A DNA stretch of 64,000 bases from Bacteroidota bacterium (GTDB taxonomy: Bacteria; Bacteroidota; Ignavibacteria; UBA10030), in contig JBARRO010000048.1 in NCBI GenBank assembly GCA_049644265.1, forward strand, positions 2,886-66,885. The letters run 5' to 3'. Of this stretch, positions 16,939-30,396 are shown in pieces. Position numbers and translations under genes: made by a program. The first letter of the stretch is position 1. Each line of letters opens with the position of its first letter. The notes beneath the pieces are model-generated. The model had not been told where the DNA came from. It ran no database searches and was given only the letters and a program-made list of their open reading frames with translations.

Positions 16939-17370
16939 TTACGGTCTGAATACCTGATAGAGCATCAGGTAAATAACCACGCCTGTCACAGAAACGTAAA
17001 GCCACACGGGATACGTCCACCGGGCGATCGTCCGATGGCGCGCATCCTGCCGTTTCAATCCCCTCCACAACGTCACCAGGGCCATCGGCACAATCGCGGC
17101 CGCGAGGATCGTATGGGAAATCAGGATCGTGAAATAGACAGGCCGGCTCCATCCTTCTCCGTGAAACAGTTGTGACCCATGGAAAGCGTGGTAAACAAGA
17201 TAGGAACACAGGAAGAGCGACGAGGTAACAAACACACCAATCATTGTTGACCGATGGGCCCTGATGTTTCCTTGCTTCATGAAACGATGGCCCATCAACA
17301 GAAGAATGGCGCTCGTTGAATTCAGGATGGCGTTGAGGGCCGGAAGATCTGAAATTGAGAGAATTGACAC
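16939..17370 (-). CDS. DUF420-family membrane protein (cytochrome-oxidase-associated)
   Basis: 143 aa, four TM helices. N-terminus LPALNAILNSTSAILLLMG is typical of DUF420. Confidence 0.65.
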   Translation of the reverse strand: MSILSISDLPALNAILNSTSAILLLMGHRFMKQGNIRAHRSTMIGVFVTSSLFLCSYLVYHAFHGSQLFHGEGWSRPVYFTILISHTILAAAIVPMALVTLWRGLKRQDARHRTIARWTYPVWLYVSVTGVVIYLMLYQVFRP

Positions 17371-17393
17371 GAGGATTGATTCAGGGGCGGGGA

Positions 17394-18317
17394 CTAGATC
17401 CGATCCGCCAGCATCAGGATCATCAGTGCCGGAAGATAAGCTAGTGACGCGAAAAACACCAGACGGGAAGTGGCATTCACGACGACAGGGTTGTCCTGCC
17501 TTGACGCTCTTGAAAGCAAAAAGGAGTACCAGGCAAAGCCGCCACTCACCAGGATCGCCCCGACGAAGTAGGTCATACCAGTGAGACCGGCCACTGTAAA
17601 GCCAACACTCAGTGGAATCAGAATTGCGCAGGAAACCAAAATGTGAAGACTCGTTCTTGAGGCCCGATCGGTATCAATCACCGTGAGCATTTTGTATCCT
17701 GCACGAGCGTAATCCTTCCGATACATCCATGCAAGCGATAAGAAATGCGGAATCTGCCAGGCGAACAGAAGTCCGAAGAAAATCCAACCTCCCAAGGTGA
17801 TCCTGTTGCTCGCTGCGGCGCACCCGATCAGCGTTGGCAACGCACCGGGGACAGCTCCCACGATTGTATTGAGCCAGGTGAGTCGCTTGAGCGGTGTGTA
17901 CACAAACAAGTAGAGGAGCAGGGTTGATTCTGCGATAATTGCCGCGAGCGGATTTGCAAACACCCAAAGTATTACAAACCCCGCTGTTGAAACAAGCCAG
18001 CCAAACACGAACACCTCCGGGGCACGAAGTCGCCCTGCAGGAAGCGGTCTTCGCTCTGTCCGTTTCATTTTCGCATCGTGGAAACGCTCGATATGCTGGT
18101 TCAGCGCTCCAGCCCCTCCCCCGACGAAGAGGGTTCCCAGAGCAGTCCAAAGCATGACAATTCCATCAACCGTCGGCCCGGAAGCCAGATAGAACGAGAA
18201 CACCGTGGTGAGAACCGAAAGTCCCGTAAGCTCCGGTTTCATCAGTTCTATGTAGTCCATGAGCCGTACGCCTTGCCGACGGACCGACATTTCGACCATC
18301 TCGAACTGAGGGATCAA
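17394..18317 (-). CDS. ctaB: Protohaem IX farnesyltransferase (haem O synthase)
   Basis: UbiA-superfamily polytopic protein with KRTERRPLPAGR and NxxxDxxxD-like motifs. Confidence 0.85.
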   Translation of the reverse strand: MIPQFEMVEMSVRRQGVRLMDYIELMKPELTGLSVLTTVFSFYLASGPTVDGIVMLWTALGTLFVGGGAGALNQHIERFHDAKMKRTERRPLPAGRLRAPEVFVFGWLVSTAGFVILWVFANPLAAIIAESTLLLYLFVYTPLKRLTWLNTIVGAVPGALPTLIGCAAASNRITLGGWIFFGLLFAWQIPHFLSLAWMYRKDYARAGYKMLTVIDTDRASRTSLHILVSCAILIPLSVGFTVAGLTGMTYFVGAILVSGGFAWYSFLLSRASRQDNPVVVNATSRLVFFASLAYLPALMILMLADRI

Positions 18318-19339
18318 GCAACGGCCTCCTTTCCATTCACCACAAGCTTCTCCGAAATCAATCGAACGGGCGCAATGCGATACAGATGCAGAGCAGACAG
18401 CACAACGGTAACCAGGAGTAACGCTCCCACGGTCTGGTGCGCCGTTGCAATTTCAACGGATGTATGAGTCAGTACCGTCAAAGCCCCGAGAGAGAACTGA
18501 AGAACAACCACCCCGATGAGCGCAAGACTGAGCGACCCGAACCTCCGTGAAATCCCCGATAATTTCCGAAGCTTGAAGGCACTGGCGATAACAAAGATCG
18601 ACGTCACAACTGCCCAGAAACGATGGAGCATATGAATGACGATTTGGCCCCTTTCAATTGCGCCATCCGCGGCGAGACGAAGATCTGAACGGATGAGCTG
18701 TTCGTTGTACTTCGCAAGAGACTCGGAGGATAAGGATGGAACCAGCTGTCCGTACGCGAGTGGAAAGTCCGGAACGGCAAGGCCGGAATCCGTGTGCCGC
18801 ATGACTGAACCGAGAATCAACTGGATATAGACAGCAACAACAGACATCGCCACAATCACCATCGTATTCCGGGGAATGGAGATCGATGCCGGAGAACGAG
18901 TTAGCCACCAACGGGAAGAGAACAGTGCAAGCGAAGCAACGAGGCAGAAGAAGGTTTGGGCAAGCGTTGCGTGACTTGCGGAGACTGCGGGTGGAAGAAG
19001 GAGGTAGACTGTTAATCCGCCCAGGAGGCCCTGCAGGATCACCGCGGCAAGCGATGCCACGGAAATCCATCGAACCCAGCGTCGCTTCTCAACCTTCATG
19101 ATCCAGAATGTCAGGATGACCGTAAGAAATCCAACAAACGATGCGATCATGCGGTGTCCGTGTTCGAAGAAGATACCTCCGACCATCGGGGGCATCACTT
19201 GTCCATACGACAACGGCCAATCCGGCACAGCGAGCCCGGATCCCGTGCTTGTGACCAATCCTCCGGCAACAAGCAAAAGGACGGTACAGAACGAGACAAA
19301 AACTGTATACCAGTGGAGCGCGCGCTTATATTCGTTCAT
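18314..19339 (-). CDS. ctaA: Haem A synthase (CtaA/COX15 family)
   Basis: Eight TM helices with paired His-containing motifs (FFEHGHRMIA ... HTDSGLAVPDFPL). Four-base overlap with ctaB. Confidence 0.7.
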   Translation of the reverse strand: MNEYKRALHWYTVFVSFCTVLLLVAGGLVTSTGSGLAVPDWPLSYGQVMPPMVGGIFFEHGHRMIASFVGFLTVILTFWIMKVEKRRWVRWISVASLAAVILQGLLGGLTVYLLLPPAVSASHATLAQTFFCLVASLALFSSRWWLTRSPASISIPRNTMVIVAMSVVAVYIQLILGSVMRHTDSGLAVPDFPLAYGQLVPSLSSESLAKYNEQLIRSDLRLAADGAIERGQIVIHMLHRFWAVVTSIFVIASAFKLRKLSGISRRFGSLSLALIGVVVLQFSLGALTVLTHTSVEIATAHQTVGALLLVTVVLSALHLYRIAPVRLISEKLVVNGKEAVA

Positions 19340-19343
19340 GAAG

Positions 19344-20309
19344 TCAATTCGATGGTGCAGGTTCGGGTGCCAGCATAGTTGCCTGTTGCTGCAGCCAGGC
19401 TTGATATTCTTCAGGAGTCTGGATCGTTACGAATCCCCGCATCCTGAAATGTCCCAGTCCGCAGAGCTGCGCGCAGGCGATTTCCGTCGGCGTGTCCGGC
19501 GCAACTACTACGGACGTGATGCCCGCCTGAAGAAGTTGTGGGACGATCTCCTCAGATATGCTTCCTCCCTTTGAAACGATGGGTGTTCCATCTTTTGCAT
19601 TGTAGTCCTCAACCGCACTTGTCGATGCAAGCACCGCTGGATAATTCCCCTGTTTAAGGGCCACGTGTTGAATCGACTGTATGCGGATCTGATCCGTCGT
19701 CATAGTGGGGATAAACCAGACTCGGATGACTTCACCCGGAATAGCATCCTGCTTCACGCGGAATAACGGAAGGTTGAAACTGTGGATAACATCCTTGCTC
19801 GACAGATGTATAACGACCGGTTTCTCCACAGGGAGGTTGAGCTGATTAATCGTTGTGATATCGTCCTTGGCATACGGGTCCGAGCGATCCAGGCCCAGAG
19901 GGTTGTCCGAGCTAACCAGGTTGATATCGGTCCGGCCGAACACGCCGTCTGCGCCGGGGTAATGGACATTCCATGCGAACTGTTCCGCCACAACGCGCAC
20001 GACGGTTGCGGTCTTCTCGTCGGGTATCTGATTCACACGCTTGGCCCAGAGAGGAAAGGCAAATCCGATGAGCAGGATGGCCTCGAAGATCGCCACTCCG
20101 ACTTCAAGATACGAAGAAAAATGACTTTGAAGGCCGTCATGATTTGCCGTCTGGTTCTTCGACCGTCGGAAACGGATGAGCACAAAGGCAAAGAAACTCC
20201 CCCATCCCACAAACAGAACGAGCATCAGCCAGTGAATGACAACAATCATGTTGTCAATTTCGGGCCCGTGGGCAGAAGCATCAATCGGTAAGCGCAAGAG
20301 ATCGTGCAT
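19344..20309 (-). CDS. coxB: Cytochrome c oxidase subunit II (no fused cytochrome c domain)
   Basis: Two N-terminal TM helices and a CuA site HSFNLPLFRVKQDAIPG...CAQLCGLGHFRM. No CxxCH motif. Confidence 0.85.
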   Translation of the reverse strand: MHDLLRLPIDASAHGPEIDNMIVVIHWLMLVLFVGWGSFFAFVLIRFRRSKNQTANHDGLQSHFSSYLEVGVAIFEAILLIGFAFPLWAKRVNQIPDEKTATVVRVVAEQFAWNVHYPGADGVFGRTDINLVSSDNPLGLDRSDPYAKDDITTINQLNLPVEKPVVIHLSSKDVIHSFNLPLFRVKQDAIPGEVIRVWFIPTMTTDQIRIQSIQHVALKQGNYPAVLASTSAVEDYNAKDGTPIVSKGGSISEEIVPQLLQAGITSVVVAPDTPTEIACAQLCGLGHFRMRGFVTIQTPEEYQAWLQQQATMLAPEPAPSN

Positions 20310-20328
20310 TGTGAAACTTTCTCCTTCG

Positions 20329-20580
20329 TTAATTCATGCTTGGATAATCGACAGAACCGTTCATGGTCAGCTTCATCCGCTTCCGGATCCTCAGAAACAC
20401 TGCGCTCAGAAGGCCCAGAACGCTTCCCGTGATCCCCAGAAGAACCAGAATTGCCGCGTTTACTCCCTCCGCCATCGCTGAATTCGTGTCGCCGTAACAA
20501 ACCGGGCACGCAGCAGTTCTCGACGGTAGCATGCTGAGTGCAACCAAGAATACTATTCCGATGATCATCGATCGCTTCAT
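20329..20580 (-). CDS. Small membrane protein with CPVC motif (hypothetical, oxidase-operon-embedded)
   Basis: Likely start MKRSMIIG. Signal/TM helix, CPVCYGD motif and a second TM helix. The ORF-track N-terminal extension is probably not translated. Confidence 0.35.
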   Translation of the reverse strand: MKRSMIIGIVFLVALSMLPSRTAACPVCYGDTNSAMAEGVNAAILVLLGITGSVLGLLSAVFLRIRKRMKLTMNGSVDYPSMN

Positions 20581-20596
20581 GGAGTTTTCCTCCTTC

Positions 20597-20797
20597 TCAC
20601 ATGGAACTGATATGCCGGAACTTCCTGAGAAATCGCCGGCCGTAGAGGACGAGCAGCAGACTGCACAAGAACGCGCCAACGGCGCCAGAGATCTCCACGG
20701 GACCACGGCCATCGTAGGTCAGGAGCCAGATGCCGAACCCGAATGTGCAGAGTGTCGCAATTCCGATAAAAAAGATGTGAAATCCTTTAAGAGACAT
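20597..20797 (-). CDS. Small two-TM membrane protein (hypothetical)
   Basis: 66 aa, two hydrophobic helices. Lies between the subunit IV and subunit II genes. Confidence 0.3.
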   Translation of the reverse strand: MSLKGFHIFFIGIATLCTFGFGIWLLTYDGRGPVEISGAVGAFLCSLLLVLYGRRFLRKFRHISSM

Positions 20798-21104
20798 GGC
20801 GGCCTATATTAATGTTGTCGTGCATGTGTCCCACGGGAAGCAGCATCAGCGCAAAGAAGAACACCACGGTCAGGATCAGGACGAAATAGATGAGCTTCTT
20901 TTCTGAAATGAGATGCATAAAATAACCGGCGACCAGCGATCCTTTGATGAGCGCGATCGTCAGGGCAACCAGCACAGCAGGAAGCGTTGAAAGGTGCAGG
21001 TATGACACGGAAACCGTCACCATCGTCAGTGCCATGAGCGACACAAAGACGATGATGTAGGTCCGGACGTGCTTTTTGATATCGACGGAATGTGCGTCAG
21101 ACAT
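20787..21104 (-). CDS. coxD: Cytochrome c oxidase subunit IV (prokaryotic CoxD type)
   Basis: 105 aa, three TM helices. N-terminus HVRTYIIVFVSLMALTMVTV matches the bacterial subunit IV family. Confidence 0.6.
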   Translation of the reverse strand: MSDAHSVDIKKHVRTYIIVFVSLMALTMVTVSVSYLHLSTLPAVLVALTIALIKGSLVAGYFMHLISEKKLIYFVLILTVVFFFALMLLPVGHMHDNINIGRHVS

Positions 21105-21113
21105 GATCGCTCC

Positions 21114-21704
21114 TTAGAGAAGATACAGGACGGGAAAAAGGAATATCCATACGAGGTCGACGAAATGCCAATAGAGACCGGCGATTTCCACTCGATTCGT
21201 AAATCGCTGGGGGTCCGTCTGCCACATCTTGCTTCCCACACCCCACAGATACGTGTTGACCACGATTCCCCCGATCACATGCAGACCATGGAGCCCGGTC
21301 AACGTAAAATAGATTGCATAGAAGTTGTCCGTGCTGGGAAAATGACCGAGTTCAAACTTGTGTCCGTACTCGAATCCCTTGATGACAAGAAACACGAACG
21401 CAAGAAGAATCGTAGCTCCCATGTACATCTTGAACTTCTTGAACTCCTTCATCATGAGCGAGGCCCAGGACATCACCATCGTTACGCTGGAGGTAATCAA
21501 CACCGCCGTGTTGATGGTTGCAAGGGGCACGTTCAGGAGTTCCCAGCCATGCGGCCAGGTTTCGGCGCCCGTTCGTAGCAACACAAGCGACGAGAAGAGC
21601 GCACCGAACAGCATGACTTCGGACGCGAGGAACAGCCAGATGCCCAGCTTTCCGTTAAAGAGCCCGGTATCCGACCGGGCGTCGACCGTATAGGGGATTT
21701 GCAT
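21114..21704 (-). CDS. coxC: Cytochrome c oxidase subunit III
   Basis: 196 aa. Conserved WFLASEVMLFG ... GLHGLHVIGG motifs. Confidence 0.85.
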   Translation of the reverse strand: MQIPYTVDARSDTGLFNGKLGIWLFLASEVMLFGALFSSLVLLRTGAETWPHGWELLNVPLATINTAVLITSSVTMVMSWASLMMKEFKKFKMYMGATILLAFVFLVIKGFEYGHKFELGHFPSTDNFYAIYFTLTGLHGLHVIGGIVVNTYLWGVGSKMWQTDPQRFTNRVEIAGLYWHFVDLVWIFLFPVLYLL

Positions 21705-21709
21705 GGCGC

Positions 21710-23473
21710 TTAAACCTTTGCGGATTCGTTTTGGGGAAGGTAATCTTTATGGTTCCCAGGCACACTGTATTCGTACGGGCCCCTGTATACTTCCGGAGGC
21801 GTAAGAAAATTCCCGTGCGGAGGAGGTGTCGGAGTAGCCCAGTCGAGCGTTGTTGCTTCCCACGGATTCTCAGAAACTTTTTTGCCTTTCTTGATGCTCC
21901 AGAAGAAATTGAAGATGAAAAACAGCTGGAACAATCCGAGCGTCCAGGCCGCGACCGACATGACCTCGTTCAGATACAGAACGCCCTGAGCGTGTGCATA
22001 CTGCTGACCGCCGTCGTAGAGCCGTCGCGAAACTCCCGCCAGACCCTGGATGAACATCGGCATGAAGATAAAGTTGATCGCCACAAGCGATCCCCAGAAG
22101 TGGATCTTCCCGAGCGTTTCGCTCATCCGCCGACCGGTGACCTTTGGATACCAGAAATACACGCCGGCGAACAGGGCGAAAATTGTACCCGGGGCGACCA
22201 CATAGTGGAAATGGCCGATGACGTAGTATGTGTCATGAAGATGAATATCGGTAGGAGCCAGGCCCAGGGGCAGGCCCGTCAGTCCTCCGATGCCGAACAT
22301 GGGAAGAAAAGCCAGGGCGAAGAGCATCGGCGTGTTGTAGCGGATCGACCCGCCCCACAAGGAAAGAATCAGAGCTGTCAGAATAATAACGGACGGGATG
22401 GAAATGATCATCGTTGTCGTCTGGAAGAACGTGCTGATCGTCGTTCCCATGCCCGTCAGGAACATGTGATGTGCCCAGACGATAAACGACATGAATCCGA
22501 GGAAGATCGTTGCATACACCAGGGATTTGTATCCCCACAACGGCTTTCGCGTGTTGTTGGCGATGATTTCCCCGACAATACCCATGGCGGGAAGGATAAG
22601 CACATAGACTTCCGGATGCGCCAGGAACCAGAAGAGATGCTGCCAGAGGATTGGGCTCCCTCCTCCACTCACCTGCAACGGCTGCCCGGAAACAACGAGG
22701 CCGCTCGGCAGGAAGAAGCTTGTTCCCGCAAGTCGATCCATAAGCTGCAGAATGCCCGCTGCTTCGAGCGGCGGAAATGCAAGAAGAAGAAGGAACGATG
22801 TGACGAGCTGTGCCCACACGAAGAACGGCAAACGCATGAACGACAGGCCCCGGGCGCGGAGCTGAACAATCGTCGTAATGAAATTCACCGACCCGAGAAG
22901 CGATGATGTGATCAGAAAGATCATACCAATGAGCCAGAACGTCTGGCCTTCGGTCGCGATCGTCGCAAGCGGTGCATACGAAGTCCACCCCGAGTTCGCT
23001 GCTCCACCTGGAACAAAAAAGCTCGCAAGCATGATCACGCCGCCCCAGAAGTAGCAGTGATAGCTGGCCATGTTCAGTTTGGGGAACGCCATGTCCGGCG
23101 CCCCAATCTGCAGGGGAACAACGTAGTTCCCGAATGCTCCCACTGCCAGCGGCACGACACCGAGGAACACCATAATTGTCCCGTGCATCGCACCAAGCTG
23201 GTTGTAGAACTCGGGCAGCATGATTCCACCCGGCGCATTCGCCTCGCCCAACCATTGCCCGATGAACGGAATAGGCTGGCCCGGATATGCGAGCTGCCAG
23301 CGCATGATCATCATCAGCGTGAATCCAAAGAGCAGGAACAGGAGCGCGGTGATGCCGTACTGCACTCCGATGACTTTGTGGTCCTGGGAGAACCAATAGG
23401 TACGCCAGAAGCCCTGATGGGCTTCGTGGACATGTCCGTGAACGCTATGCTCAGCGGTCGTTACGTGTTCCAA
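21710..23473 (-). CDS. coxA: Cytochrome c oxidase subunit I (haem-copper oxidase catalytic subunit)
   Basis: 587 aa with canonical GHPEVY, WAHHMF and HFHYV motifs. The + ORF 21731..22906 is an antisense shadow. Confidence 0.95.
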   Translation of the reverse strand: MEHVTTAEHSVHGHVHEAHQGFWRTYWFSQDHKVIGVQYGITALLFLLFGFTLMMIMRWQLAYPGQPIPFIGQWLGEANAPGGIMLPEFYNQLGAMHGTIMVFLGVVPLAVGAFGNYVVPLQIGAPDMAFPKLNMASYHCYFWGGVIMLASFFVPGGAANSGWTSYAPLATIATEGQTFWLIGMIFLITSSLLGSVNFITTIVQLRARGLSFMRLPFFVWAQLVTSFLLLLAFPPLEAAGILQLMDRLAGTSFFLPSGLVVSGQPLQVSGGGSPILWQHLFWFLAHPEVYVLILPAMGIVGEIIANNTRKPLWGYKSLVYATIFLGFMSFIVWAHHMFLTGMGTTISTFFQTTTMIISIPSVIILTALILSLWGGSIRYNTPMLFALAFLPMFGIGGLTGLPLGLAPTDIHLHDTYYVIGHFHYVVAPGTIFALFAGVYFWYPKVTGRRMSETLGKIHFWGSLVAINFIFMPMFIQGLAGVSRRLYDGGQQYAHAQGVLYLNEVMSVAAWTLGLFQLFFIFNFFWSIKKGKKVSENPWEATTLDWATPTPPPHGNFLTPPEVYRGPYEYSVPGNHKDYLPQNESAKV

Positions 23474-23535
23474 TGTGGGTTCCTTTCCCCGATGAAGACG
23501 CCGCCCCGTTCAGGCCGGCGCCTGGATGGAGGTGA

Positions 23536-24228
23536 TTAGCCTTTGAACTTAAAGTCAAGCGTTGCCTTTCCGCTTGCGTCGACCTTCACTTTACCGGTCT
23601 GCACACCGTATTTTTCGTGCCAGGCCTCGACCGTGTACTCACCGGCAGGGAGTCCTTTCAGTGTGAAGGATCCATCATCGCCGGTTACGCCGTAGAACGG
23701 ATGACTGAAGACGCCGATGTACGCGCCCATCCAGCTGTGGACTTCACACTTGACCTTGAAGGTCTCGGGTTTGTCGAATTTCTTGGTCATCTTCATGTTC
23801 TTTATGGGCTGAGCCTGGTTGAACTGCGTGTTGAGCTTGGACAGGCTATGAACGTTGTGGAGCGTTGGGTCGCTGTTCTTGATTTCCAGCTCCTGGTTGA
23901 CCATAATGCCGAGAACATGGGGCTTGTAGACGCAACCCATCTGATCGAACAGAAGTTTGTCAGAAGGTGTCGCGAACGTTTTTCCACCGAGTCCATCCTT
24001 CACATACACCAGAACGTTCTTCAACGTTCCGTTCTTGTTGACAACAACCTCTTCACCGTACACGTCTGTTGCATGAGCTTTCTTGCAGACGGGGTCTGCA
24101 TTCATGAGAATGCGCGAAGCAGCAGGCGCCTTCCCTTCGAATGTTACTTTACCTGACACATCCCCCGCCACAAGTGAAGCGGTCAGGGCAAGTACCAGGA
24201 CCGCGACAGCCAACATGATCTTACGCAT
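23536..24228 (-). CDS. Secreted cupredoxin-like (type-1 copper) protein, putative electron carrier
   Basis: Signal peptide. Candidate copper ligands His (HNVHS) ... C-x2-H-x2-M (KCEVHSWM) spaced as in amicyanin/plastocyanin. Positioned between the cytochrome c gene and the oxidase genes. Confidence 0.4.
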   Translation of the reverse strand: MRKIMLAVAVLVLALTASLVAGDVSGKVTFEGKAPAASRILMNADPVCKKAHATDVYGEEVVVNKNGTLKNVLVYVKDGLGGKTFATPSDKLLFDQMGCVYKPHVLGIMVNQELEIKNSDPTLHNVHSLSKLNTQFNQAQPIKNMKMTKKFDKPETFKVKCEVHSWMGAYIGVFSHPFYGVTGDDGSFTLKGLPAGEYTVEAWHEKYGVQTGKVKVDASGKATLDFKFKG

Positions 24229-24281
24229 GAAATTACTCCTTCCTTAGATTTGAATCCTTTGAGTTACTGATGGTGAACGTA

Positions 24282-26936
24282 CTACTTTATGTCTGCGACC
24301 GCCGCGCTTCGACGGCCGAGACTCCAAACATAGTTCTGAAGAGCTTTGATCTGCTCATCCGAGCTTCCTCCATACACCGTCTCGTCAGGTCCTTTCCCTT
24401 CAAAGAAGAATGCGGGCATCCGCGTGCCGGGCTGCAGCTTTTGCGGATCGTTCAGCCATTGAATAATCCACTCGGGCTTCAACCGGGAGCTCGCCATGGC
24501 CAGATTCGGTGCGAGATCTGACGCCGTCTGCTCTCCTCCCAGCTTCACCGGGCCGGAGGGATGACATTTTCCGCACTGGTACGTATCAAAAAGCTTCTTG
24601 CCTGTTCCAACGTATTTGGGATCGGCGACCGTCGCTGCGTAATCCCTGATTTCAAGATCCTGTTTTGACATCCCGAGGAAGTATTTCTGGACTTTTGAGA
24701 CTTCTTCATCGGTCAGACTGAACGTCGGCATGCGTATTTGCAGCCACGGGCGAATCGTTGTCGGGTTCTTCAGGAAATTATGGAGCCAAGGCTCCTGCAC
24801 CTTTGCTCCCTGGCTTTCCGGAAGCAACGGCGGACCTATCGCAGGCTCCTCGTACTTTGCAAGAACGTACCCTCCGCGGTCTTCGAGCTGGTGACATTGC
24901 ATGCAATTGTACCGCATCGTTACGCGGCGTCCGGCTTCAATGTCCTGCTTTCGCTTGTCGTAGACTTGCTGATACTTCGGCAACGGAACATCCTTCGTCA
25001 TACTGATGAGGAAAAGCCTCAGTTCCCGGATTTCTTCGTCGTTGAACGTGAAGATCGGCATCTTCTGGGCAATACGTTCCGTCAGATATTGTCGCGGATT
25101 CCTTAATTTACCGTACACCCATCCTCTCCACGTATGTTGAACCCAGACCGCTCCGGTCGAATCTACCCGAAACTCTTCTGTCCCCACATGGCTGAGCTCC
25201 TTGGTGTCCCCAAAATCCATCTGCTCGGCCTTCTTTCGACCGAACTCCGAAAGCTCGACAGAAACTTTTCCCTCCTTCTCCGTCCCTTTGATGTCGTGAC
25301 AGCCGAAACAACCATATTCACGTATCAGCTTGTCCCCGCGCGCGATCAGGTCGGGATTGCCAAGGTCGAGCGTCTTCTTCTCAAACGTCCGGTCATCCTT
25401 CATGGTAAGAAGGTACGCGACGACGTCTCTTGCCTCCGAGTCGGAAAGCCTCAGACTCGGCATTCGAGTTTCCGGATTGTAATGACGCGGATTCTTGAGC
25501 CAATCAAAGAGCCAATCTCCGGTAACTTTGCTTCCCACGCGAGTCAGTTCCGGTGCGATGTCGTACGTTGTTCCACGGGAGTCGCGAACCGTCATGAAAT
25601 TCCCGGCGACATGGCATGCCTGGCATCCGACCGATTCAAAGATTCTTTTCCCCTGGGCCGCACTCCCGCCGACAAATGATCCGCGGGGTCTCGCAAATTC
25701 AAAGTTGGATGACTTGGAGAGATTCACGAGAAATGCCGTGACGGCCTCGGCCTGGTCGTCCGTGAATTTGAAATTCGGCATTCGCGTATGCGGATTGTAC
25801 TCTTTCGGATTCCGAACCCACCGGAAGATCCACTCCGGTTTCGCCTTGGCAGTCACGGAATTCAGCGGCGGGCCGATTTTCGCGAGGTCGGAATATCCTT
25901 TGATTTCATGACAGCCGTAGCAGCCTGAATCGATGATGAGTTGCTTGGCACGCGTGAACGGTTGAGCATACTTGAGGACAGATTCGTTATAATGACACGA
26001 ATTGCAGGTAGCGTAGACGTCGTTTCCTCTGAGAATCGGCGTCTCCCAGTAATGGTCCTCGTCGCCGTGAGCAAACCCAGTCGTGAGCGCAGGACCCTGA
26101 CCACGATGGCAGGGAGTGCAGCCGAATGTTTCCGGATTGTGCTTTGCCAGAAGTTCCGGCATCGGATGTTTGCGATAGGGCTCCGGTGCATCCGCCATAA
26201 CATCGTCCGCCCATCCGGCATGACAGGTCTGGCAGCGATCCACCCGGGCCTTGATTTCCTGAAACGGAGTCAACTCAAAATCATTCAGCACAAGCTGTCG
26301 TACAGCGATCGGCGCCGCTTTTGCCTTCTCGATCTTTGAGGCAAACCCGTTGGCCTTTGCGTACATAGCTTTCAGGTCCGCCTGGGCTTTCATAACTGCA
26401 TCTTTATACTTGTTGACGACGATGTCGAGCGTCGCAACCTTGCTTTCGAGGTCGGTCTTCTCGCCGAAATGCCTGGCGATGGCGGCATCGTGCTTGTCCA
26501 ATTCGACTTTCTCGCTCAACCCAGACTTCCCTTCCGAGAGGGCTTTCTTATACTGGAAATACGCCGCGTCAGATCGGCTTCGCGCAAACCTCCATTCGCG
26601 CGTCGCAATATCGAGGTCTTCCTGCAGTTTCTCCTTCGCCTTTACCGTCTTCATGTACTCGTCAGACTCCAGCCCCTTGTTTGCCTCCGCCAGCGCCTGA
26701 TTCAATTGCGCTGCCTGGGATGAATCGATTTCCTGCAACGCCGCCTGGCGCAGGGAGTCTGTTTTCTGAGCATACAGCTCGTAGTAGCGGGCCTGATATT
26801 CCTTCCACGGCCGTCGCACCTTCACTTCATCCCACACCGCCCATACCGTCCCGAGGAACAGCAATCCACTGAACGCAACGTAGAACAGCTCGTAGTTGCG
26901 GGATTCGACAGGTGTTTGTGATCGCTTATCGAACAT
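24282..26936 (-). CDS. Membrane-anchored octahaem c-type cytochrome with long N-terminal coiled coil
   Basis: 884 aa. One N-terminal TM helix, ~200 aa of heptad-rich Ala/Lys/Glu coiled coil, then eight CxxCH motifs (CQTCH, CTPCH, CNSCH, CYGCH, CQACH, CFGCH, CMQCH, CGKCH). Confidence 0.85.
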   Translation of the reverse strand: MFDKRSQTPVESRNYELFYVAFSGLLFLGTVWAVWDEVKVRRPWKEYQARYYELYAQKTDSLRQAALQEIDSSQAAQLNQALAEANKGLESDEYMKTVKAKEKLQEDLDIATREWRFARSRSDAAYFQYKKALSEGKSGLSEKVELDKHDAAIARHFGEKTDLESKVATLDIVVNKYKDAVMKAQADLKAMYAKANGFASKIEKAKAAPIAVRQLVLNDFELTPFQEIKARVDRCQTCHAGWADDVMADAPEPYRKHPMPELLAKHNPETFGCTPCHRGQGPALTTGFAHGDEDHYWETPILRGNDVYATCNSCHYNESVLKYAQPFTRAKQLIIDSGCYGCHEIKGYSDLAKIGPPLNSVTAKAKPEWIFRWVRNPKEYNPHTRMPNFKFTDDQAEAVTAFLVNLSKSSNFEFARPRGSFVGGSAAQGKRIFESVGCQACHVAGNFMTVRDSRGTTYDIAPELTRVGSKVTGDWLFDWLKNPRHYNPETRMPSLRLSDSEARDVVAYLLTMKDDRTFEKKTLDLGNPDLIARGDKLIREYGCFGCHDIKGTEKEGKVSVELSEFGRKKAEQMDFGDTKELSHVGTEEFRVDSTGAVWVQHTWRGWVYGKLRNPRQYLTERIAQKMPIFTFNDEEIRELRLFLISMTKDVPLPKYQQVYDKRKQDIEAGRRVTMRYNCMQCHQLEDRGGYVLAKYEEPAIGPPLLPESQGAKVQEPWLHNFLKNPTTIRPWLQIRMPTFSLTDEEVSKVQKYFLGMSKQDLEIRDYAATVADPKYVGTGKKLFDTYQCGKCHPSGPVKLGGEQTASDLAPNLAMASSRLKPEWIIQWLNDPQKLQPGTRMPAFFFEGKGPDETVYGGSSDEQIKALQNYVWSLGRRSAAVADIK

Positions 26937-26960
26937 TTATCTGTCCACAAGATTTGAAAG

Positions 26961-27386
26961 ATACCACGAAGGACACCAAGAACACTAAGGGTAAATACGC
27001 AGCCTTCAATGAACGATGTCTCATTCGTGTTATTCGTTGCATTCGAGAAATTCGTGTCTCAGTAAGTGACCTGATCTTCGTGCTCCCCGTGTCCTTCGTG
27101 GTTATACGTTAAACCAGGGGGTAACCCAGATATACTTAACCGGATTCGCACCGAACGTTTTTCAAACATCGAACTGTCCGCTGAGAATTGAAAGTCGTTT
27201 TACCACGAAGGGCACAAAGGACACTAAGTAATATGTGCTCTTGAAATATCTCTTTAGCTCTACTCGTTGCATTCGAGAATTCGTGTTTCAGTAAGTGACC
27301 TGATCTTCGTGCTCTTCGTGTCCTTCGTGGTTATATGTTAAACCAGGGGGTAACCCAGATATACTTAACCGGACTCGCACCGAACG
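26961..27386. repeat. Tandem duplication (~190-bp units, ~90% identical) containing elements bounded by 14-bp inverted repeats
   Basis: Unit 1 26961-27157 and unit 2 27200-27386. Each holds ACCACGAAGGACAC ... GTGTCCTTCGTGGT termini (26963-27102; 27202-27331) and internal ATTCG(T/A)N motifs at exact 9-bp spacing (27023, 27032, 27041, 27050). Unit 1 also duplicates the last ~55 coding bp of the subunit-IV-like cyt b gene. Confidence 0.8.
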
Positions 27387-28233
27387 CAAGCGGAGCCAGC
27401 CGCAAGATAATCTTGATGATCAACCCCACCATGGTGACGAACAAAAACGATACAATTGAATATCTCAGAAACCCGAGTTTTTTCATGAGCTCTGTATTCT
27501 GCTTCTTCAACCAATACAGCGGAATCGTGGAATAATAACCCAGCACCACGACGGCGCCGAAGATGAAAGCTACAGGATTGATTGAGGCATCCGGCATGCG
27601 GGTTGGGATCCCGAACATCTCCGAAAAATCGACGTTCGTCAGGACGGCAACGTAGTGCGGATCCCATCTTTCGCCGGGCAAAAAGAAGTTCCACCCAGGC
27701 CCCCGGAGAAACGTTCCGATGAAGATCAGGAATACCCAGAGGATGAGAAAACCGAACGCAAATGTGGTCACCGCAAACTTGCGTTCCTTAAACGTGTAGT
27801 AGCCGTTCCCTTTCTCGTTGATGTCGATGTACGGGATGGCCATGAGCCCGACAATAATGAGAGAAGGAAGCACTACGCCTGCAATCCACGGATCAAAATA
27901 CACGAGCATTTCCTGAAGTCCGAGAAAATACCAGGGCGCCTTCGACGGATTGGGCGTGAGCGCGCGGTTCGCAGGCTCTTCAAGCGGAGCGTCGAGCGTG
28001 ATGGACCAGATAACCATCACCGCCATCACGGCAATTGTCGCCAGAAACTCCACGCGCACGAGATACGGCCAGACCTGTACCTTGTCATCCTGCTTCGCCT
28101 CATCCGGCAGATCCTGACTGTCATTCTTGCGCGCCTTCTTCCAGGCATGGATGGTGAAGTAGACGACTGAAACCAACAGAAGAACAATCGGGATATTGTC
28201 CGGCTTCGTGATGATTTCGAGGAACTGGCTCAT
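27331..28233 (-). CDS. Cytochrome b C-terminal-domain subunit (subunit-IV/PetD-like, extended)
   Basis: 300 aa with multiple TM helices. PWYFLGLQEML motif corresponding to the conserved PEWY region of cyt b / b6f subunit IV. Confidence 0.7.
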   Translation of the reverse strand: MSQFLEIITKPDNIPIVLLLVSVVYFTIHAWKKARKNDSQDLPDEAKQDDKVQVWPYLVRVEFLATIAVMAVMVIWSITLDAPLEEPANRALTPNPSKAPWYFLGLQEMLVYFDPWIAGVVLPSLIIVGLMAIPYIDINEKGNGYYTFKERKFAVTTFAFGFLILWVFLIFIGTFLRGPGWNFFLPGERWDPHYVAVLTNVDFSEMFGIPTRMPDASINPVAFIFGAVVVLGYYSTIPLYWLKKQNTELMKKLGFLRYSIVSFLFVTMVGLIIKIILRLAPLAFGASPVKYIWVTPWFNI

Positions 28234-28294
28234 AGGGTGCTCTCAAACATGTTTTTGGCAGTGCCGATGACGGGTGTAGAACTGGTGAATTTAG

Positions 28295-28403
28295 CCGCAA
28301 AAGTCGCCAAGGAGTCGCAAAGGGCGCAAAGCAAAAATTAATTCATGACTTTTGTCTTCTCTTTGCGATCTTTGCGTCTACTCTGCGTCCTTTGCGGTTT
28401 GCT
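28295..28403. promoter_or_regulatory. Dyad-symmetric array: 3x CGCAAAG then 3x CTTTGCG (long imperfect hairpin) between the two cyt b genes
   Basis: CGCAAAG at 28297, 28316 and 28325. CTTTGCG at 28361, 28370 and 28390, with mirrored 9/19-20-bp spacings around a centre near 28346. Either a stem-loop in the intercistronic mRNA or a binding array for a dimeric regulator. Confidence 0.4.
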
Positions 28404-28404
28404 T

Positions 28405-29175
28405 CTAAAACGTCTTCTTCCCCGTGTCCGGACCCGAAATACCTCCGTCCTTCCTTACACGCCAAAAATGGACCGCCATAAAGATTGTCGCAATGACCGG
28501 AAGAAAAATACAATGACCGACATAGAATCGAAGCAGCGTCGGAGGGCCGACTTCCGTTCCGCCGAGCAGCACGAACCGCACGTCGTTATCCGGGCGCATA
28601 CCGAGCTGTGCACCAAACGGACCTTCGTGTCCAAGCAGCGGAGTTGCACGCGCCATGTTCGTTCCAACCGTCACCGCCCATATCGACAACTGGTCCCACG
28701 GAAGGAGATATCCGGAAAAACTCAGAAGGAATGTCAACACGAGCAGGAGCACACCGACCACCCAGTTGAACTGGCGGGGTGGTTTGTACGATCCGGTGAG
28801 GAACACGCGGAACATGTGCAGCATAACCGTCAGGACCATCGCGTGCGCAGCCCATCGATGCATGTTGCGAATAAGTGGACCGAACGGGACGTCGTTCATC
28901 AGGTACTTCATGTCCTCATACGCGTACTGAGCAGTCGGCCTGTAGTAGAACATCAGGATGATGCCGGTGATCGTGAGGATAAGAAAGAGAAGAAACGTAA
29001 TACCACCCATTCCCCATGTGTATCCGATGTTCGTTGCATGGCGCGGAACTCTGACAGGATGCAGATGGAGAAAAACGTTGTCGACAATCTGGAGAGCGCG
29101 GTTCCGCTGCGTGTCCTGATAGGAATGCCGGAAGATCGATTTATAGACTTCAGTTTTCTTGAAGGATTCAAGCAT
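28405..29175 (-). CDS. Cytochrome b (b6-like, N-terminal haem-binding subunit)
   Basis: 256 aa, four TM helices with paired His ligands ([12 protein letters not shown]...; HFWRVRK). Confidence 0.85.
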
Positions 29176-29190
29176 CGAATAAATCTCCTC

Positions 29191-29886
29191 TTAACCTGTG
29201 TACGGCAGGAATGCACCCGGCTTGGTCCATTCCCCCTTTTCATACAAGAACTTGACGCTCCGGTCGATTTCAAGCTCACCGTCGTCCGCCAGGCCGATCG
29301 AAGCGCGTTCGAGGGGCCGCGGCGCAGGGCCTTCGAAATTCATTCCGGTCTTGTAAAATCCGCTTCCATGGCAGGGACACTTGAATTTGATATCAGAGGG
29401 AAGCCAGCGGGGTGTACAGCCAAGGTGTGTGCAAATGGAGATGAGGGCGTAGAAACCCTCTTTCTCGCGGATGATCCAGACCCGTTTTTCATCCTTAAAT
29501 TTTTCGCTGACCTCGCCGACCACAAAATCCTGGGGAAATCCTGCCTTGAACTTCGTGGAGGGTTCAAACAGAACGCGGGGAAACATGAAGCGCAGTGCGC
29601 CGACCGTGGAGGTGACAATGAATCCGAGAAAGCCGAGCCATCCGACAACGGAAAGCAGGTTCCGCCGACTCATGCGCCAGATGCCGGGGTCTTTTTCCGG
29701 AGCGCGATCCTGCTTGGCTTTTCGTACGGGGGAAGTTGTCAGCTGGGGAGCCGGTTTCGGCGGAGGTGCAGCCGCAGGCTGGTTGGCTGACGCGATATCG
29801 GGAACTTGATCTGACATTGACATTCCTTCGTGCTTTAAAGAGTGTCGAATTCGATGAGCGGCGCCATTCACGAACGGCGTCCGCAA
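29191..29886 (-). CDS. Rieske [2Fe-2S] iron-sulfur protein
   Basis: CTHLGC ... CPCHGS cluster-binding boxes and one TM anchor. Likely true start at an internal Met (MSMSDQV). Confidence 0.9.
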   Translation of the reverse strand: MRTPFVNGAAHRIRHSLKHEGMSMSDQVPDIASANQPAAAPPPKPAPQLTTSPVRKAKQDRAPEKDPGIWRMSRRNLLSVVGWLGFLGFIVTSTVGALRFMFPRVLFEPSTKFKAGFPQDFVVGEVSEKFKDEKRVWIIREKEGFYALISICTHLGCTPRWLPSDIKFKCPCHGSGFYKTGMNFEGPAPRPLERASIGLADDGELEIDRSVKFLYEKGEWTKPGAFLPYTG

Positions 29887-29893
29887 TCAACCG

Positions 29894-30220
29894 TCAGGCT
29901 GCGGCAGCAACCTCATCTTCCCTCTTCACCATGTCGATGGTTTCCCACGGACAGTACTTCGCGCACAGCTTGCAGCCAATGCAGATCTCTTCGTCAACAA
30001 CAACGATTCCGTTCACACTGACGTAACCATGCTCCTCAGGATTCTCAGGCCCGGGAATCTTGTACAAACAATCCACGGGACAGAATTCAATGCACACTTC
30101 GCAACCGGTGCATCCTTCGGGATGGACAATGGCCACGAGAGGAGATTTTTTTTTCTTTTTTGGCGCGGGAGGAGACGCGGGCTTGATGCTTGGTAAAGAT
30201 GCTATCGGGGTATCACTCAT
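29894..30220 (-). CDS. 2[4Fe-4S] dicluster ferredoxin heading the bc-type operon
   Basis: Two CxxCxxCxxxCP motifs (CTGCEVCIEFCP, CIGCKLCAKYCP). N-terminal Pro/Lys-rich tail encoded across an A6GA9 tract. Confidence 0.8.
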   Translation of the reverse strand: MSDTPIASLPSIKPASPPAPKKKKKSPLVAIVHPEGCTGCEVCIEFCPVDCLYKIPGPENPEEHGYVSVNGIVVVDEEICIGCKLCAKYCPWETIDMVKREDEVAAAA

Positions 30221-30396
30221 TTACCGTTCTTGAGAATTCCGCGAGAGTGGGTGCGATTTTTTCCTCTGATAATGCTCCAATATAGCTATGGGTGTTCCTA
30301 TTGTCAAGAAAAATTCCAGGAATCATTCCTGCGAACGTCGTTCCGACGACTTTCATGTCAATCGTTTACGGTGTCAATTTCATTTCCCCCTTTTGA

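Follow-up and report, generated by a model that had tools for sequence, protein, structure and literature searches.

In Sulfolobus acidocaldarius, a Rieske protein (SoxF), a cytochrome b (SoxG), the blue-copper protein sulfocyanin (SoxE) and an oxidase (SoxM/SoxH) are encoded in one gene cluster and form one supercomplex, known as SoxM. A similar combination of a Rieske/cytochrome b pair, a blue-copper carrier and a CuA-containing haem-copper oxidase, again without a cytochrome c1, is present in the DNA analysed here, a 64-kb stretch (the window) of contig JBARRO010000048.1 from a Bacteroidota metagenome-assembled genome (MAG). Between positions 16939 and 30220 the minus strand of the window carries 15 co-directional genes without interruption, as judged from the open reading frame (ORF) listing, Pfam, NCBIfam and the translations, and their products appear to make up a respiratory chain that runs all the way from quinol to oxygen and contains unusual components. 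Our preferred reading, to which we give a probability of roughly 0.65, is that the cluster specifies a self-contained aerobic electron-transport chain made of two tandem modules, a Rieske/cytochrome b module ending in an octahaem cytochrome c and an oxidase module beginning with a predicted cupredoxin, and that the cupredoxin carries electrons from the octahaem protein to CuA. The likeness to SoxM has its limits. SoxM is entirely devoid of c-type cytochromes, has a fusion of subunits I and III, and consists of proteins that are not close homologues of those described here, for which a supercomplex is at most putative.

The SoxM supercomplex is also cited in the description of a second Rieske/cytochrome b cluster of Haloarchaea that comes with halocyanin (Baymann et al. 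2012, PMC3509893). Like ours, this haloarchaeal cluster has a split cytochrome b devoid of the haem-ci cysteine, and its Rieske signature is of the high-potential type in a host for which menaquinone is the expected quinone. However, it belongs to another domain of life and has no multihaem cytochrome c. Halocyanin has been proposed to be reduced directly by the Rieske/b complex, while in the window the octahaem cytochrome intervenes, the cupredoxin travels with the oxidase genes and, unlike in the haloarchaeal system, it is nested in a transthyretin-like domain. Among named sequences, module 1 comes closest to the ExtO-ExtP-ExtQ-ExtS set of Geobacter (Rieske protein, cytochrome b, membrane protein and tetrahaem lipoprotein, respectively; PMC5877670), which has the same gene order. 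Scores against the NCBIfam equivalog models (NF040969-71) fall short of the cut-offs (ExtP 283 against 290 bits, ExtQ 62 against 150, ExtS 78 against 100), and the module 1 proteins should therefore be regarded as relatives of the Ext proteins but not as equivalogs. ExtS is a four-haem lipoprotein, in contrast to the transmembrane (TM)-anchored eight-haem protein with a coiled coil found here, and the Geobacter ext cluster lies with porin and multihaem genes in an anaerobe, lacks an oxidase and encodes proteins (ExtOPQS) that are biochemically uncharacterised.

Complexes that feed a CuA oxidase without a soluble cytochrome c are exemplified by the actinobacterial bcc-aa3 system where a complex III without c1 uses QcrC, a dihaem cytochrome c that is membrane-bound and multi-domain, for this purpose (PMC4505504). 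There are two haems instead of eight in that case, there is no cupredoxin, the cta and qcr genes are arranged differently, and the cytochrome b is long and unsplit with a PDWY-type motif at the quinol-oxidising (Qo) site (PMC4122944). A multihaem quinol oxidoreductase adjoining an A-family oxidase is also seen in the alternative complex III (ACIII)-aa3/caa3 clusters of Bacteroidota, Ignavibacterium album and Rhodothermus, and functional coupling of ACIII with the oxidase has been demonstrated in Rhodothermus (PMC3362086). The haem-4 domain of the octahaem protein weakly matches ActA of ACIII, but ACIII is unrelated to Rieske/cytochrome b complexes and its clusters have no cupredoxin. The I. 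album type strain possesses ACIII and a caa3 oxidase and is reported to be without a Rieske/cytochrome b complex. Finally, the rus system of Acidithiobacillus ferrooxidans (PMC4059628) differs in starting from extracellular Fe(II), rusticyanin and a cytochrome of the outer membrane being part of the chain; in this organism bc1 is encoded by a separate operon (petI) and runs in reverse, and the AcoP protein is TM-anchored and has a green copper site.

In the direction of transcription, the 15 genes of the window are the following (lengths in amino acids, aa).

29894-30220, minus strand: 2[4Fe-4S] ferredoxin, 108 aa (Pfam Fer4 families)
29191-29886, minus strand: Rieske [2Fe-2S] subunit (Pfam Rieske, NCBIfam PetC/Rieske_proteo)
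28405-29175, minus strand: short b6-type split cytochrome b, 256 aa (Pfam Cytochrome_B, 1e-44)
27331-28233, minus strand: subunit-IV-like membrane protein, 300 aa (Pfam Cytochrom_B_C, NCBIfam ExtQ)
24282-26936, minus strand: membrane-anchored octahaem cytochrome c, 884 aa (eight CxxCH)
23536-24228, minus strand: predicted periplasmic cupredoxin, 230 aa (model, fold matches, ligand alignment)
21710-23473, minus strand: haem-copper oxidase subunit I (CoxI), A family (Pfam COX1, 447 bits)
21114-21704, minus strand: oxidase subunit III (CoxIII), short form, 196 aa (Pfam COX3; NCBIfam CyoC, CtaE, QoxC-like)
20787-21104, minus strand: oxidase subunit IV (CoxIV), 105 aa, 3 TM helices (Pfam COX4_pro; TIGR02229 above cut-off)
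20597-20797, minus strand: small membrane protein A (ORF A), 66 aa, 2 TM helices (reading of the DNA; conserved in 42 loci)
20329-20580, minus strand: small membrane protein B (ORF B), 83 aa from MKRSM (AGGAGG 7 nucleotides (nt) upstream; conserved in 41 loci)
19344-20309, minus strand: oxidase subunit II (CoxII), 321 aa, 2 TM helices (CuA motifs DVIHSF and CAQLCGLGHFRM)
18314-19339, minus strand: haem A synthase CtaA/Cox15 (Pfam COX15-CtaA)
17394-18317, minus strand: haem O synthase CtaB, UbiA family (Pfam UbiA; overlaps the end of ctaA)
16939-17370, minus strand: DUF420/CtaM-type oxidase maturation factor (Pfam DUF420, 1e-44)

An earlier examination of the same DNA (the sequence-only reading) had named all of these genes, and Pfam, NCBIfam and the translations place each of them on the minus strand where it had been put. 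Its total of sixteen genes is wrong; there are 15, as there are in its own list. That reading had also emphasized the absence of a cytochrome c1 and of a caa3-type fusion, and rightly so: CoxII is without CxxCH and the octahaem protein is the sole CxxCH protein of the cluster. It is even, as had been claimed, the only c-type cytochrome around, no other CxxCH-bearing ORF being present in the entire 64-kb window.

To follow the distribution of these genes, we scanned one genome per species, found the octahaem protein in 163 species, kept 80 loci and mapped the window proteins onto them; co-occurrence was evaluated for the 59 loci in which 3 kb or more lie downstream of this protein's gene. The prevailing order begins with bshC on the opposite strand, followed by the genes for ferredoxin, Rieske protein, cytochrome b, subunit IV, octahaem cytochrome, cupredoxin, CoxI, CoxIII, CoxIV, A, B, CoxII, CtaA, CtaB and DUF420, and ends with a purine-nucleoside-phosphorylase-family gene (PNP), again on the opposite strand. 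Cupredoxin and CoxI are both encoded in 44 of the 59 loci and both missing from the other 15, never one without the other, and the cupredoxin belongs to the oxidase module. The octahaem gene, on the other hand, follows the Rieske-cytochrome b-subunit IV genes in all loci examined. The 15 loci lacking cupredoxin and CoxI fall into three separate clades of the octahaem tree, one of which is Kryptonia, and several of them have PNP or other non-respiratory genes directly after the octahaem gene. From its occurrence without the oxidase block, the Rieske/b/octahaem set is therefore an autonomous complex III.

The locus of Candidatus Kryptonium thompsonii (L077, 1-12577) has a co-directional series CtaA-CtaB-CoxIII-CoxIII-CoxIV-SCO1-DUF420-AtpD-AtpC-Fdx-Rrf2-Rieske-cytochrome b-subunit IV-octahaem, where Fdx is the ferredoxin; an Rrf2-family regulator thus stands between the ferredoxin and Rieske genes. 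In Kryptonia, the Rieske/b/octahaem genes thus adjoin an oxidase cluster, here a conventional one of the assembly type together with atpDC, in a second and different manner.

The cupredoxin family led us to five further contigs, one of them cut upstream, from Thermoanaerobaculia/Acidobacteriota MAGs. These show the same 15-16-gene architecture, both small ORFs included: a Fer4 protein of 157 aa and a HEAT-repeat protein, then Rieske, cytochrome b, subunit IV (407 aa) and a cytochrome c of 1084-1139 aa, followed by cupredoxin, CoxI, CoxIII, CoxIV, proteins of ~66 and ~83-106 aa, CoxII, CtaA, CtaB, in some cases SCO1, and DUF420. In two of them that were read closely (L081 and L082) the large cytochrome combines a TM helix at its N-terminus with a coiled coil and eight CxxCH, APWY is found at the Qo site, the motifs of the two small ORFs are retained, CoxII lacks the insert described below, and the cupredoxin has all its ligands together with a lipobox-like N-terminus (ACGGG) and a long linker. 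Identity to the window proteins amounts to 75% for CoxI, 65% for CoxIII, 62% for Rieske, 60% for cytochrome b, 47% for the cupredoxin and 27% for the octahaem cytochrome. The 157-aa poly-ferredoxin and HEAT-repeat protein, which replace the 108-aa ferredoxin in L081, L084, L085 and L086, show only generic similarity to it. Since the same order recurs in 44 of 59 loci and in the five Acidobacteriota-type contigs, the arrangement is not a chance juxtaposition. The sequence-only reading had described the locus as one unit, and to this extent the tandem arrangement is indeed conserved; it nevertheless consists of two separable modules, with the Rieske/b/octahaem part standing alone in 15 loci.

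The proteins of module 1 carry the hallmarks of the Rieske/cytochrome b superfamily, namely the Rieske boxes with a twin-arginine/TM anchor, two His pairs and a PxWY-type Qo motif. The Rieske subunit, whose true start is likely the ATG at about 29823, has a twin-arginine motif (SRRNLL) and a single TM helix, its two cluster-binding boxes being CTHLGC and CPCHGSGF. These boxes are kept in 66-68 loci, the second being split about evenly between CPCHGSGF and CPCHGSGY. According to a heuristic based on the Ser and Tyr/Phe positions, S-F signatures correspond to roughly 200-230 mV and S-Y signatures to 300-350 mV (PMC3509893), and the cluster is thus predicted to be of mid- to high potential, roughly +200 to +350 mV across the relatives. 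In the cytochrome b, the His pairs for haems bL and bH are spaced H-x13-H and H-x14-H. Where b6 has CxGG it reads GMGG ([YF]TWGMGG in 70/70 loci, Ignavibacteria-like and Kryptonia), and it consequently lacks the haem ci cysteine of b6f-type complexes. Neither is there the monohaem cytochrome c1 of a bc1 complex, the 884-aa octahaem protein taking up all the CxxCH motifs. The Acidobacteriota cytochrome b of L081 (2574-3359) reads CMGG and thus possesses the CxGG cysteine, in contrast to the GMGG of all 70 Ignavibacteria-like/Kryptonia orthologues; within a cluster type that is otherwise conserved, haem ci may thus have disappeared or may never have been acquired.

The subunit-IV-like protein has six predicted TM segments and contains the Qo motif APWY in 73/73 loci. 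APWY is among the six major Qo patterns distinguished by Kao and Hunte (PMC4122944), and the APWY clade is scattered over Deltaproteobacteria, Chloroflexi, Nitrospirales, Planctomycetes and others. As of 2014 neither in vitro nor in vivo characterisation of any APWY-type homologue was on record, and a reverse mode of operation had been proposed (PMC4122944). Dibrova et al. assign the cytochrome b of Kryptonia to the heterogeneous subfamily G (PMC5600118). The ferredoxin has neither a signal peptide nor a TM helix and its N-terminus is rich in Lys. It was found in 35 of 63 informative loci, one large clade being without it, and the Kryptonia orthologue in the same position is 56% identical to the window copy.

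The octahaem cytochrome begins with a single TM helix (residues 17-35) followed by ~170 aa of long helices. Its eight CxxCH sites lie at residues 235, 273, 311, 339, 438, 543, 678 and 788, and no CxxxCH or CxxxxCH variants are present. The first three haems (Cys235, Cys273 and Cys311) are closely spaced and are probably bis-His ligated, with the invariant His257, His266 and His290 as candidate distal ligands. The other five (339, 438, 543, 678 and 788) belong to class-I domains, each having an invariant Met (Met386, Met492, Met626, Met736 and Met840) in a (R/K)MP motif. Pfam matches Cytochrom_C in four stretches and Cytochrome_CBB3, with weaker matches to Cytochrome_C7, Cytochrom_c3_2 and MtrC-like families, and NCBIfam matches SoxX, ExtS, QcrC and CcoP; the ExtS match (78 bits) takes in residues 265-508 and almost the full length of the Geobacter model. 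A single-sequence search against the PDB found no match for this protein. The family profile gave weak matches to small cytochromes c only among solved structures, and domains 4 and 5 are weakly matched by ActA of ACIII (haem-4 domain), by mitochondrial cytochrome c and by the cytochrome c domain that Thermus caa3 has in its CoxII. The AlphaFold model has a mean predicted local distance difference test (pLDDT) score of 57 and is confident only in the helices at 16-207 (pLDDT 80-90), which makes it too poor for a fold comparison. Database members of the family number at least 1409; every one comes from Ignavibacteria or 'Bacteroidota' MAGs, and some already bear the name 'putative octahem cytochrome c'. 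We read this protein, from its motifs, as a probable electron-transfer wire with a high-potential His/Met output end that would replace cytochrome c1, and not as an enzyme.

The 230-aa product of the next gene carries a Sec signal peptide, and its identification as a type-1 copper cupredoxin is supported by both ligand motifs and structural modelling. The model (pLDDT 84) has the Greek-key fold and matches plastocyanin, amicyanin and pseudoazurin, with the cupredoxin domain sitting nested inside a transthyretin-like CarboxypepD_reg sandwich. The presumed copper ligands His124, Cys161, His164 and Met167 are invariant among 19 aligned homologues, and the motifs LHN[VI]H and C[ED]VHxWM are kept in 56-57 loci and in the two Acidobacteriota loci read. 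The ligand loop, C-x2-H-x2-M, is that of an amicyanin-type type-1 copper site. This bears out the blue-copper-like protein of the sequence-only reading, even though Pfam at E <= 0.01 returns only CarboxypepD_reg-type matches, and neither Copper-bind nor Cupredoxin_1, and the best PDB sequence match to a blue-copper protein has E = 0.9. As the profiles of known copper proteins miss it, NCBI labels the protein 'carboxypeptidase regulatory-like', while the Joint Genome Institute calls it 'plastocyanin'. At E <= 1e-3 the family comprises 13,139 clusters (50% identity), of which 1,555 remain at E <= 1e-30.

Cys48/His52 and Cys99 of the cupredoxin are also invariant, His104 is nearly so, and the corresponding motifs occur in the two Acidobacteriota loci read; a disulphide or an additional metal site could be built from these four residues. 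Among the family members P0245-P0394, the nested cupredoxin/CarboxypepD_reg arrangement is also seen as tandem duplicates of about 450-600 aa and inside giant proteins of 1287-3178 aa, one of which has seven matched stretches.

CoxI contains the motifs GAMHGT, AHPEVY, WAHHMF, GHFHY, GAPDMAFPKLN and FGNY. The six His ligands, the Glu/Tyr of HPEVY (an A1-type signature) and the Asp/Asn/Glu residues of the D channel place it in the A family, although with 590 bits it stays below the TIGR02891 cut-off of 671. Among 53-57 orthologues the motifs of the His ligands do not vary; those of the D channel are conserved apart from minor variants. The A family has been described as having two conserved proton channels (PMC11214002), and the lysine of the K channel is called conserved in a work cited in PMC7196763. 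In the window protein this position is occupied by Ile (residue ~365, in 'SIPSVIILT'). An alignment with 1ar1_A, gap-free between WAHHMF and LWGGSI, puts the Ile opposite Lys354 of Paracoccus (Lys362 of Rhodobacter), and the position is Ile or Val in 53/53 CoxI orthologues, those of Acidobacteriota included. Helix VIII is rich in Ser and Thr, which recalls, by analogy, the hydroxyl-based K path of the B-family enzymes.

CoxII has a complete CuA site (H...CxxxCxxxHxxM) that aligns to the CuA loop of R. sphaeroides, its motifs being found in 35-41 loci, as well as an aromatic FAWNVHY stretch. The complete CuA site marks it as a periplasm-fed subunit and not as part of a quinol oxidase. There is no CxxCH in the window copy or in 40 orthologues, in line with the claim of the sequence-only reading that a cytochrome c domain is lacking; the enzyme is thus not of the caa3 type with a fused cytochrome c. 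An insert of ~68 aa (residues about 200-278) immediately precedes the CuA loop. We considered this insert as a docking adaptor for the cupredoxin and rejected the idea, because the length of the insert is variable and loci L021 and L022, which have the full cluster, do without it: the His-to-Cys spacing is 38 (canonical) in these two, 104-107 in most loci and 153-217 in L002, L010, L047 and L061.

ORFs A and B, for which a Pfam search yielded no family, are conserved in the Acidobacteriota contigs as well. ORF A overlaps the CoxIV stop codon by 11 nt. ORF B consists of a signal/TM segment, a conserved motif AC(P/G)xC(Y/F)G on the periplasmic side, and another TM helix. That CoxIV and CoxII are separated by only one ORF, of 127 aa, was rejected since the DNA shows two genes in different frames, and the NCBI accession numbering of the source MAG leaves room for exactly two. 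CtaA, CtaB and the DUF420/CtaM-type protein would supply haem A and maturation, haem A being the predicted cofactor of the oxidase; in S. aureus, aa3 does not function without CtaM (PMC4958251). The cluster of the window does not encode SCO1, unlike those of Kryptonia and Acidobacteriota. Throughout the related loci the order I-III-IV-x-x-II-ctaA-ctaB is kept, and the unusual order I-III-IV-x-x-II remarked upon by the sequence-only reading turns out to be real and conserved in ~50 species of two phyla. The gene for oxidase subunit II normally comes first, and the cox gene order of the A. ferrooxidans rus operon likewise differs from that of the present cluster, where subunit II comes last. One conserved organisation has been reported for 106/109 cox cassettes of cultured bacteria, in a text that does not give the order itself (PMC5317091). 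With the qualifications made above, the interpretation of the cluster offered by the sequence-only reading is supported, all computational checks capable of refuting it having turned out favourably.

The genes of the cluster are mostly separated by 4-60 nt or overlap, as do CoxIV/ORF A and ctaA/ctaB. In the relatives, the median gap between the octahaem and cupredoxin genes is 45 nt and that between cupredoxin and CoxI is 52 nt. Two spacers in the window are clearly longer than their counterparts: that between cytochrome b and subunit IV (28234-28404) has 171 nt against a median of 26 nt in relatives, and that between subunit IV and octahaem 394 nt against a median of 34 nt. By eye, the former contains complementary runs of the type CGCAAAGG / CCTTTGCG, while a repeat finder with a minimum length of 20 reported none. 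Two further elements were recorded.

26937-27386, strand not assigned: structured spacer element, a 229-bp tandem duplication in which the final 55 nt of the subunit IV gene are copied, with inverted repeats that have 27-nt arms
30279-30307, minus strand: TTGACA-17-TATATT, a promoter-like site upstream of the ferredoxin gene, within the divergent spacer

The structured spacer contains four copies of a 23-27-nt palindromic arm that is found nowhere else in the window (0.02 expected), and as RNA it folds with -122 kcal/mol (z = -4.2). An Rfam scan of the 16-31 kb region gave no family. The element is specific to this genome and may influence how strongly the part downstream of it is expressed or how stable that part is; it could represent either an insertion resembling a miniature inverted-repeat transposable element or a regulatory or processing element within the operon. 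The promoter-like site matches the sigma-70-like consensus at 11/12 positions and is the best one between 16000 and 31000. Overall, promoter- and terminator-like sites were no more numerous than in shuffled sequence and this site alone stands out, which is only suggestive of a promoter upstream of the ferredoxin gene. On the plus strand the cluster region has a single long ORF (28345-29790, 481 aa), which is antisense to the conserved cytochrome b and Rieske genes and almost certainly a non-coding shadow. The cluster is flanked by bshC and PNP on the plus strand and its base composition is unremarkable. Recent horizontal acquisition by this genome was considered and rejected in view of the absence of a compositional anomaly and the conservation of the bshC/PNP flanks across relatives.

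Based on the gene identities, cofactor motifs, cupredoxin fold, synteny and co-occurrence described above, we infer the direction of electron flow, the order of the carriers and the type of quinone as follows. Ferredoxin, Rieske protein, short cytochrome b, six-TM subunit IV and octahaem cytochrome would together make up an atypical complex III. Quinol, presumably menaquinol, would be oxidised at the APWY-type Qo site, one electron passing through the Rieske cluster to the membrane-anchored octahaem protein, which would stand in for cytochrome c1, while the other would pass through the two b haems. The five His/Met class-I domains could then act as a high-potential periplasmic output wire. Module 2, comprising cupredoxin, CoxI-III-IV, A, B, CoxII, CtaA, CtaB and DUF420, would be an A-family oxidase equipped with its own carrier and cofactor supply. 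In this module the cupredoxin most likely ferries electrons from the octahaem protein to the CuA site of CoxII, which has no fused cytochrome c, and the final path would lead from CuA via haem a to a3-CuB and O2. Co-transcription, and any supercomplex formed by the products, are likewise predictions.

Several points weigh against this chain of events. Module 1 occurs without module 2 in 15 species, and the octahaem protein must therefore also serve other acceptors. Its class-I domains could reduce CuA directly, in which case the cupredoxin would be dispensable as a shuttle. Reverse operation has been proposed for the APWY clade (PMC4122944), and since this clade of CoxI has no K-channel lysine, ordinary aa3 behaviour cannot be assumed. 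In this particular genome, the structured 394-nt spacer inside module 1 could uncouple expression. Besides, the octahaem model (pLDDT 57) is too poor for structural comparison, and the proposal is based on sequence, synteny and models.

The main competing explanation gives the cupredoxin a different role, as an oxidase partner of the AcoP kind (stabiliser or modulator; precedent in PMC4059628) or as a factor delivering copper to CuA, with the octahaem protein reducing CuA directly. The strict co-occurrence of the cupredoxin with the oxidase, and not with the Rieske/b module, fits such a role, as does the resemblance of octahaem domains 4 and 5 to known CuA donors; the Cys48/His52/Cys99/His104 set could be a second metal site, and the cluster in the window is without SCO1 whereas those of Kryptonia and Acidobacteriota have it. 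However, Acidobacteriota carry both SCO1 and the cupredoxin, which is hence not simply an SCO1 replacement, the ligands and the C-x2-H-x2-M loop match electron-transfer cupredoxins such as amicyanin, and a PCuAC-type motif was not seen by eye, no pattern search having been made. We consider this explanation doubtful but a distinct possibility. The two modules might also be functionally independent operons that happen to adjoin, the Rieske/b/octahaem complex feeding other reductases and the cupredoxin-oxidase having other donors. They are separable in evolution, the promoter and terminator scans are uninformative, and there are long spacers (171 and 394 nt), though these lie inside module 1. 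On the other hand, the tandem has been kept in 44 species of one lineage and in the five Acidobacteriota-type contigs with octahaem-cupredoxin gaps of about 10-70 nt, Kryptonia shows an independent adjacency to an oxidase cluster, and the oxidase has no fused c domain while the octahaem protein is the cluster's only cytochrome c. Independence of the modules is accordingly unlikely in our view.

It is quite improbable that the locus is a branch point, comparable to rus plus petI of Acidithiobacillus, where electrons would enter at the octahaem protein or the cupredoxin and flow mostly downhill to the oxidase, the remainder being driven uphill by an APWY-type Rieske/b complex working in reverse to reduce quinone and perhaps ferredoxin. 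The invariance of APWY in a clade proposed to work in reverse (PMC4122944) is compatible with this, as are the high potential predicted from the Rieske signature (PMC3509893), the ferredoxin gene that heads the operon in the Ignavibacteria-like, Kryptonia and Acidobacteriota versions, and the size of a periplasmic multihaem protein that could take electrons from outer-membrane or soluble donors. Yet the 64-kb window has no outer-membrane cytochrome, porin-cytochrome gene or other c-type cytochrome, the flanking genes are of the housekeeping type and nothing in the window suggests autotrophy; moreover, a Rieske/b/octahaem set standing alone in 15 species suits a generic quinol-oxidising complex III. 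A still more ambitious possibility, which we likewise hold to be unlikely, is a machine common to several phyla in which the APWY-type Rieske/b complex would exchange electrons between its low-potential b-haem chain and the cytoplasmic ferredoxin, either by quinol-driven bifurcation to ferredoxin or by ferredoxin-to-quinone input, while the high-potential branch would be hard-wired, by way of the octahaem stalk and the dedicated cupredoxin, to the oxidase without K-channel lysine, possibly as an obligate III-IV supercomplex. Finally, the haem count and the weak multihaem matches (Cytochrome_C7, Cytochrom_c3_2, MtrC-like), and only these, might recall a catalytic octahaem enzyme related to hydroxylamine oxidoreductase (HAO), octahaem nitrite reductase or tetrathionate reductase. 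The sequence-only reading had named homology to a nitrite- or hydroxylamine-type enzyme as the result that would speak against a respiratory role. We looked for it and found no HAO-, NrfA- or Otr-type family among the Pfam and NCBIfam matches listed, the strongest being class-I families. Five of the eight haems in class-I domains with an invariant Met, eight plain CxxCH sites, the membrane anchor, the constant position behind Rieske/b/subunit IV, and structure searches that return nothing with the single sequence and small cytochromes c only with the profile all argue in the same direction, and a catalytic function is very improbable indeed.

Each ingredient of the cluster has precedents. Blue-copper carriers to oxidases are known from Haloarchaea, Sulfolobus SoxM, Chloroflexus and Acidithiobacillus, cytochromes other than c1 are associated with Rieske/b complexes in Actinobacteria, Firmicutes, anammox bacteria and Geobacter, and complex III-oxidase gene clusters are also precedented. 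What is apparently new is the combination of an APWY-type split b, a TM-anchored octahaem cytochrome with a coiled coil, a nested cupredoxin, an A-family oxidase devoid of the K-channel lysine and a subunit II that comes last. Our literature search, which left subscription journals mostly outside so that a prior description is possible, turned up no account of the cluster, of the nested cupredoxin family or of a lysine-less clade of A-family oxidases.

The physical linkage of an APWY-type complex to an O2 reductase in about 50 species of two phyla provides a testable context in which this type of complex would work forward in aerobic respiration. In Acidobacteriota and Ignavibacteria of soil and groundwater, the very large family of nested cupredoxins is a candidate for a widespread but unrecognised carrier that brings electrons to haem-copper oxidases. 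If the oxidase is active, a CoxI that has a D channel but no K-channel lysine would bear on how protons are delivered by A-family enzymes during the reductive half-cycle. In these lineages, the cluster could mark an aerobic capacity that is independent of ACIII or of a soluble cytochrome c.

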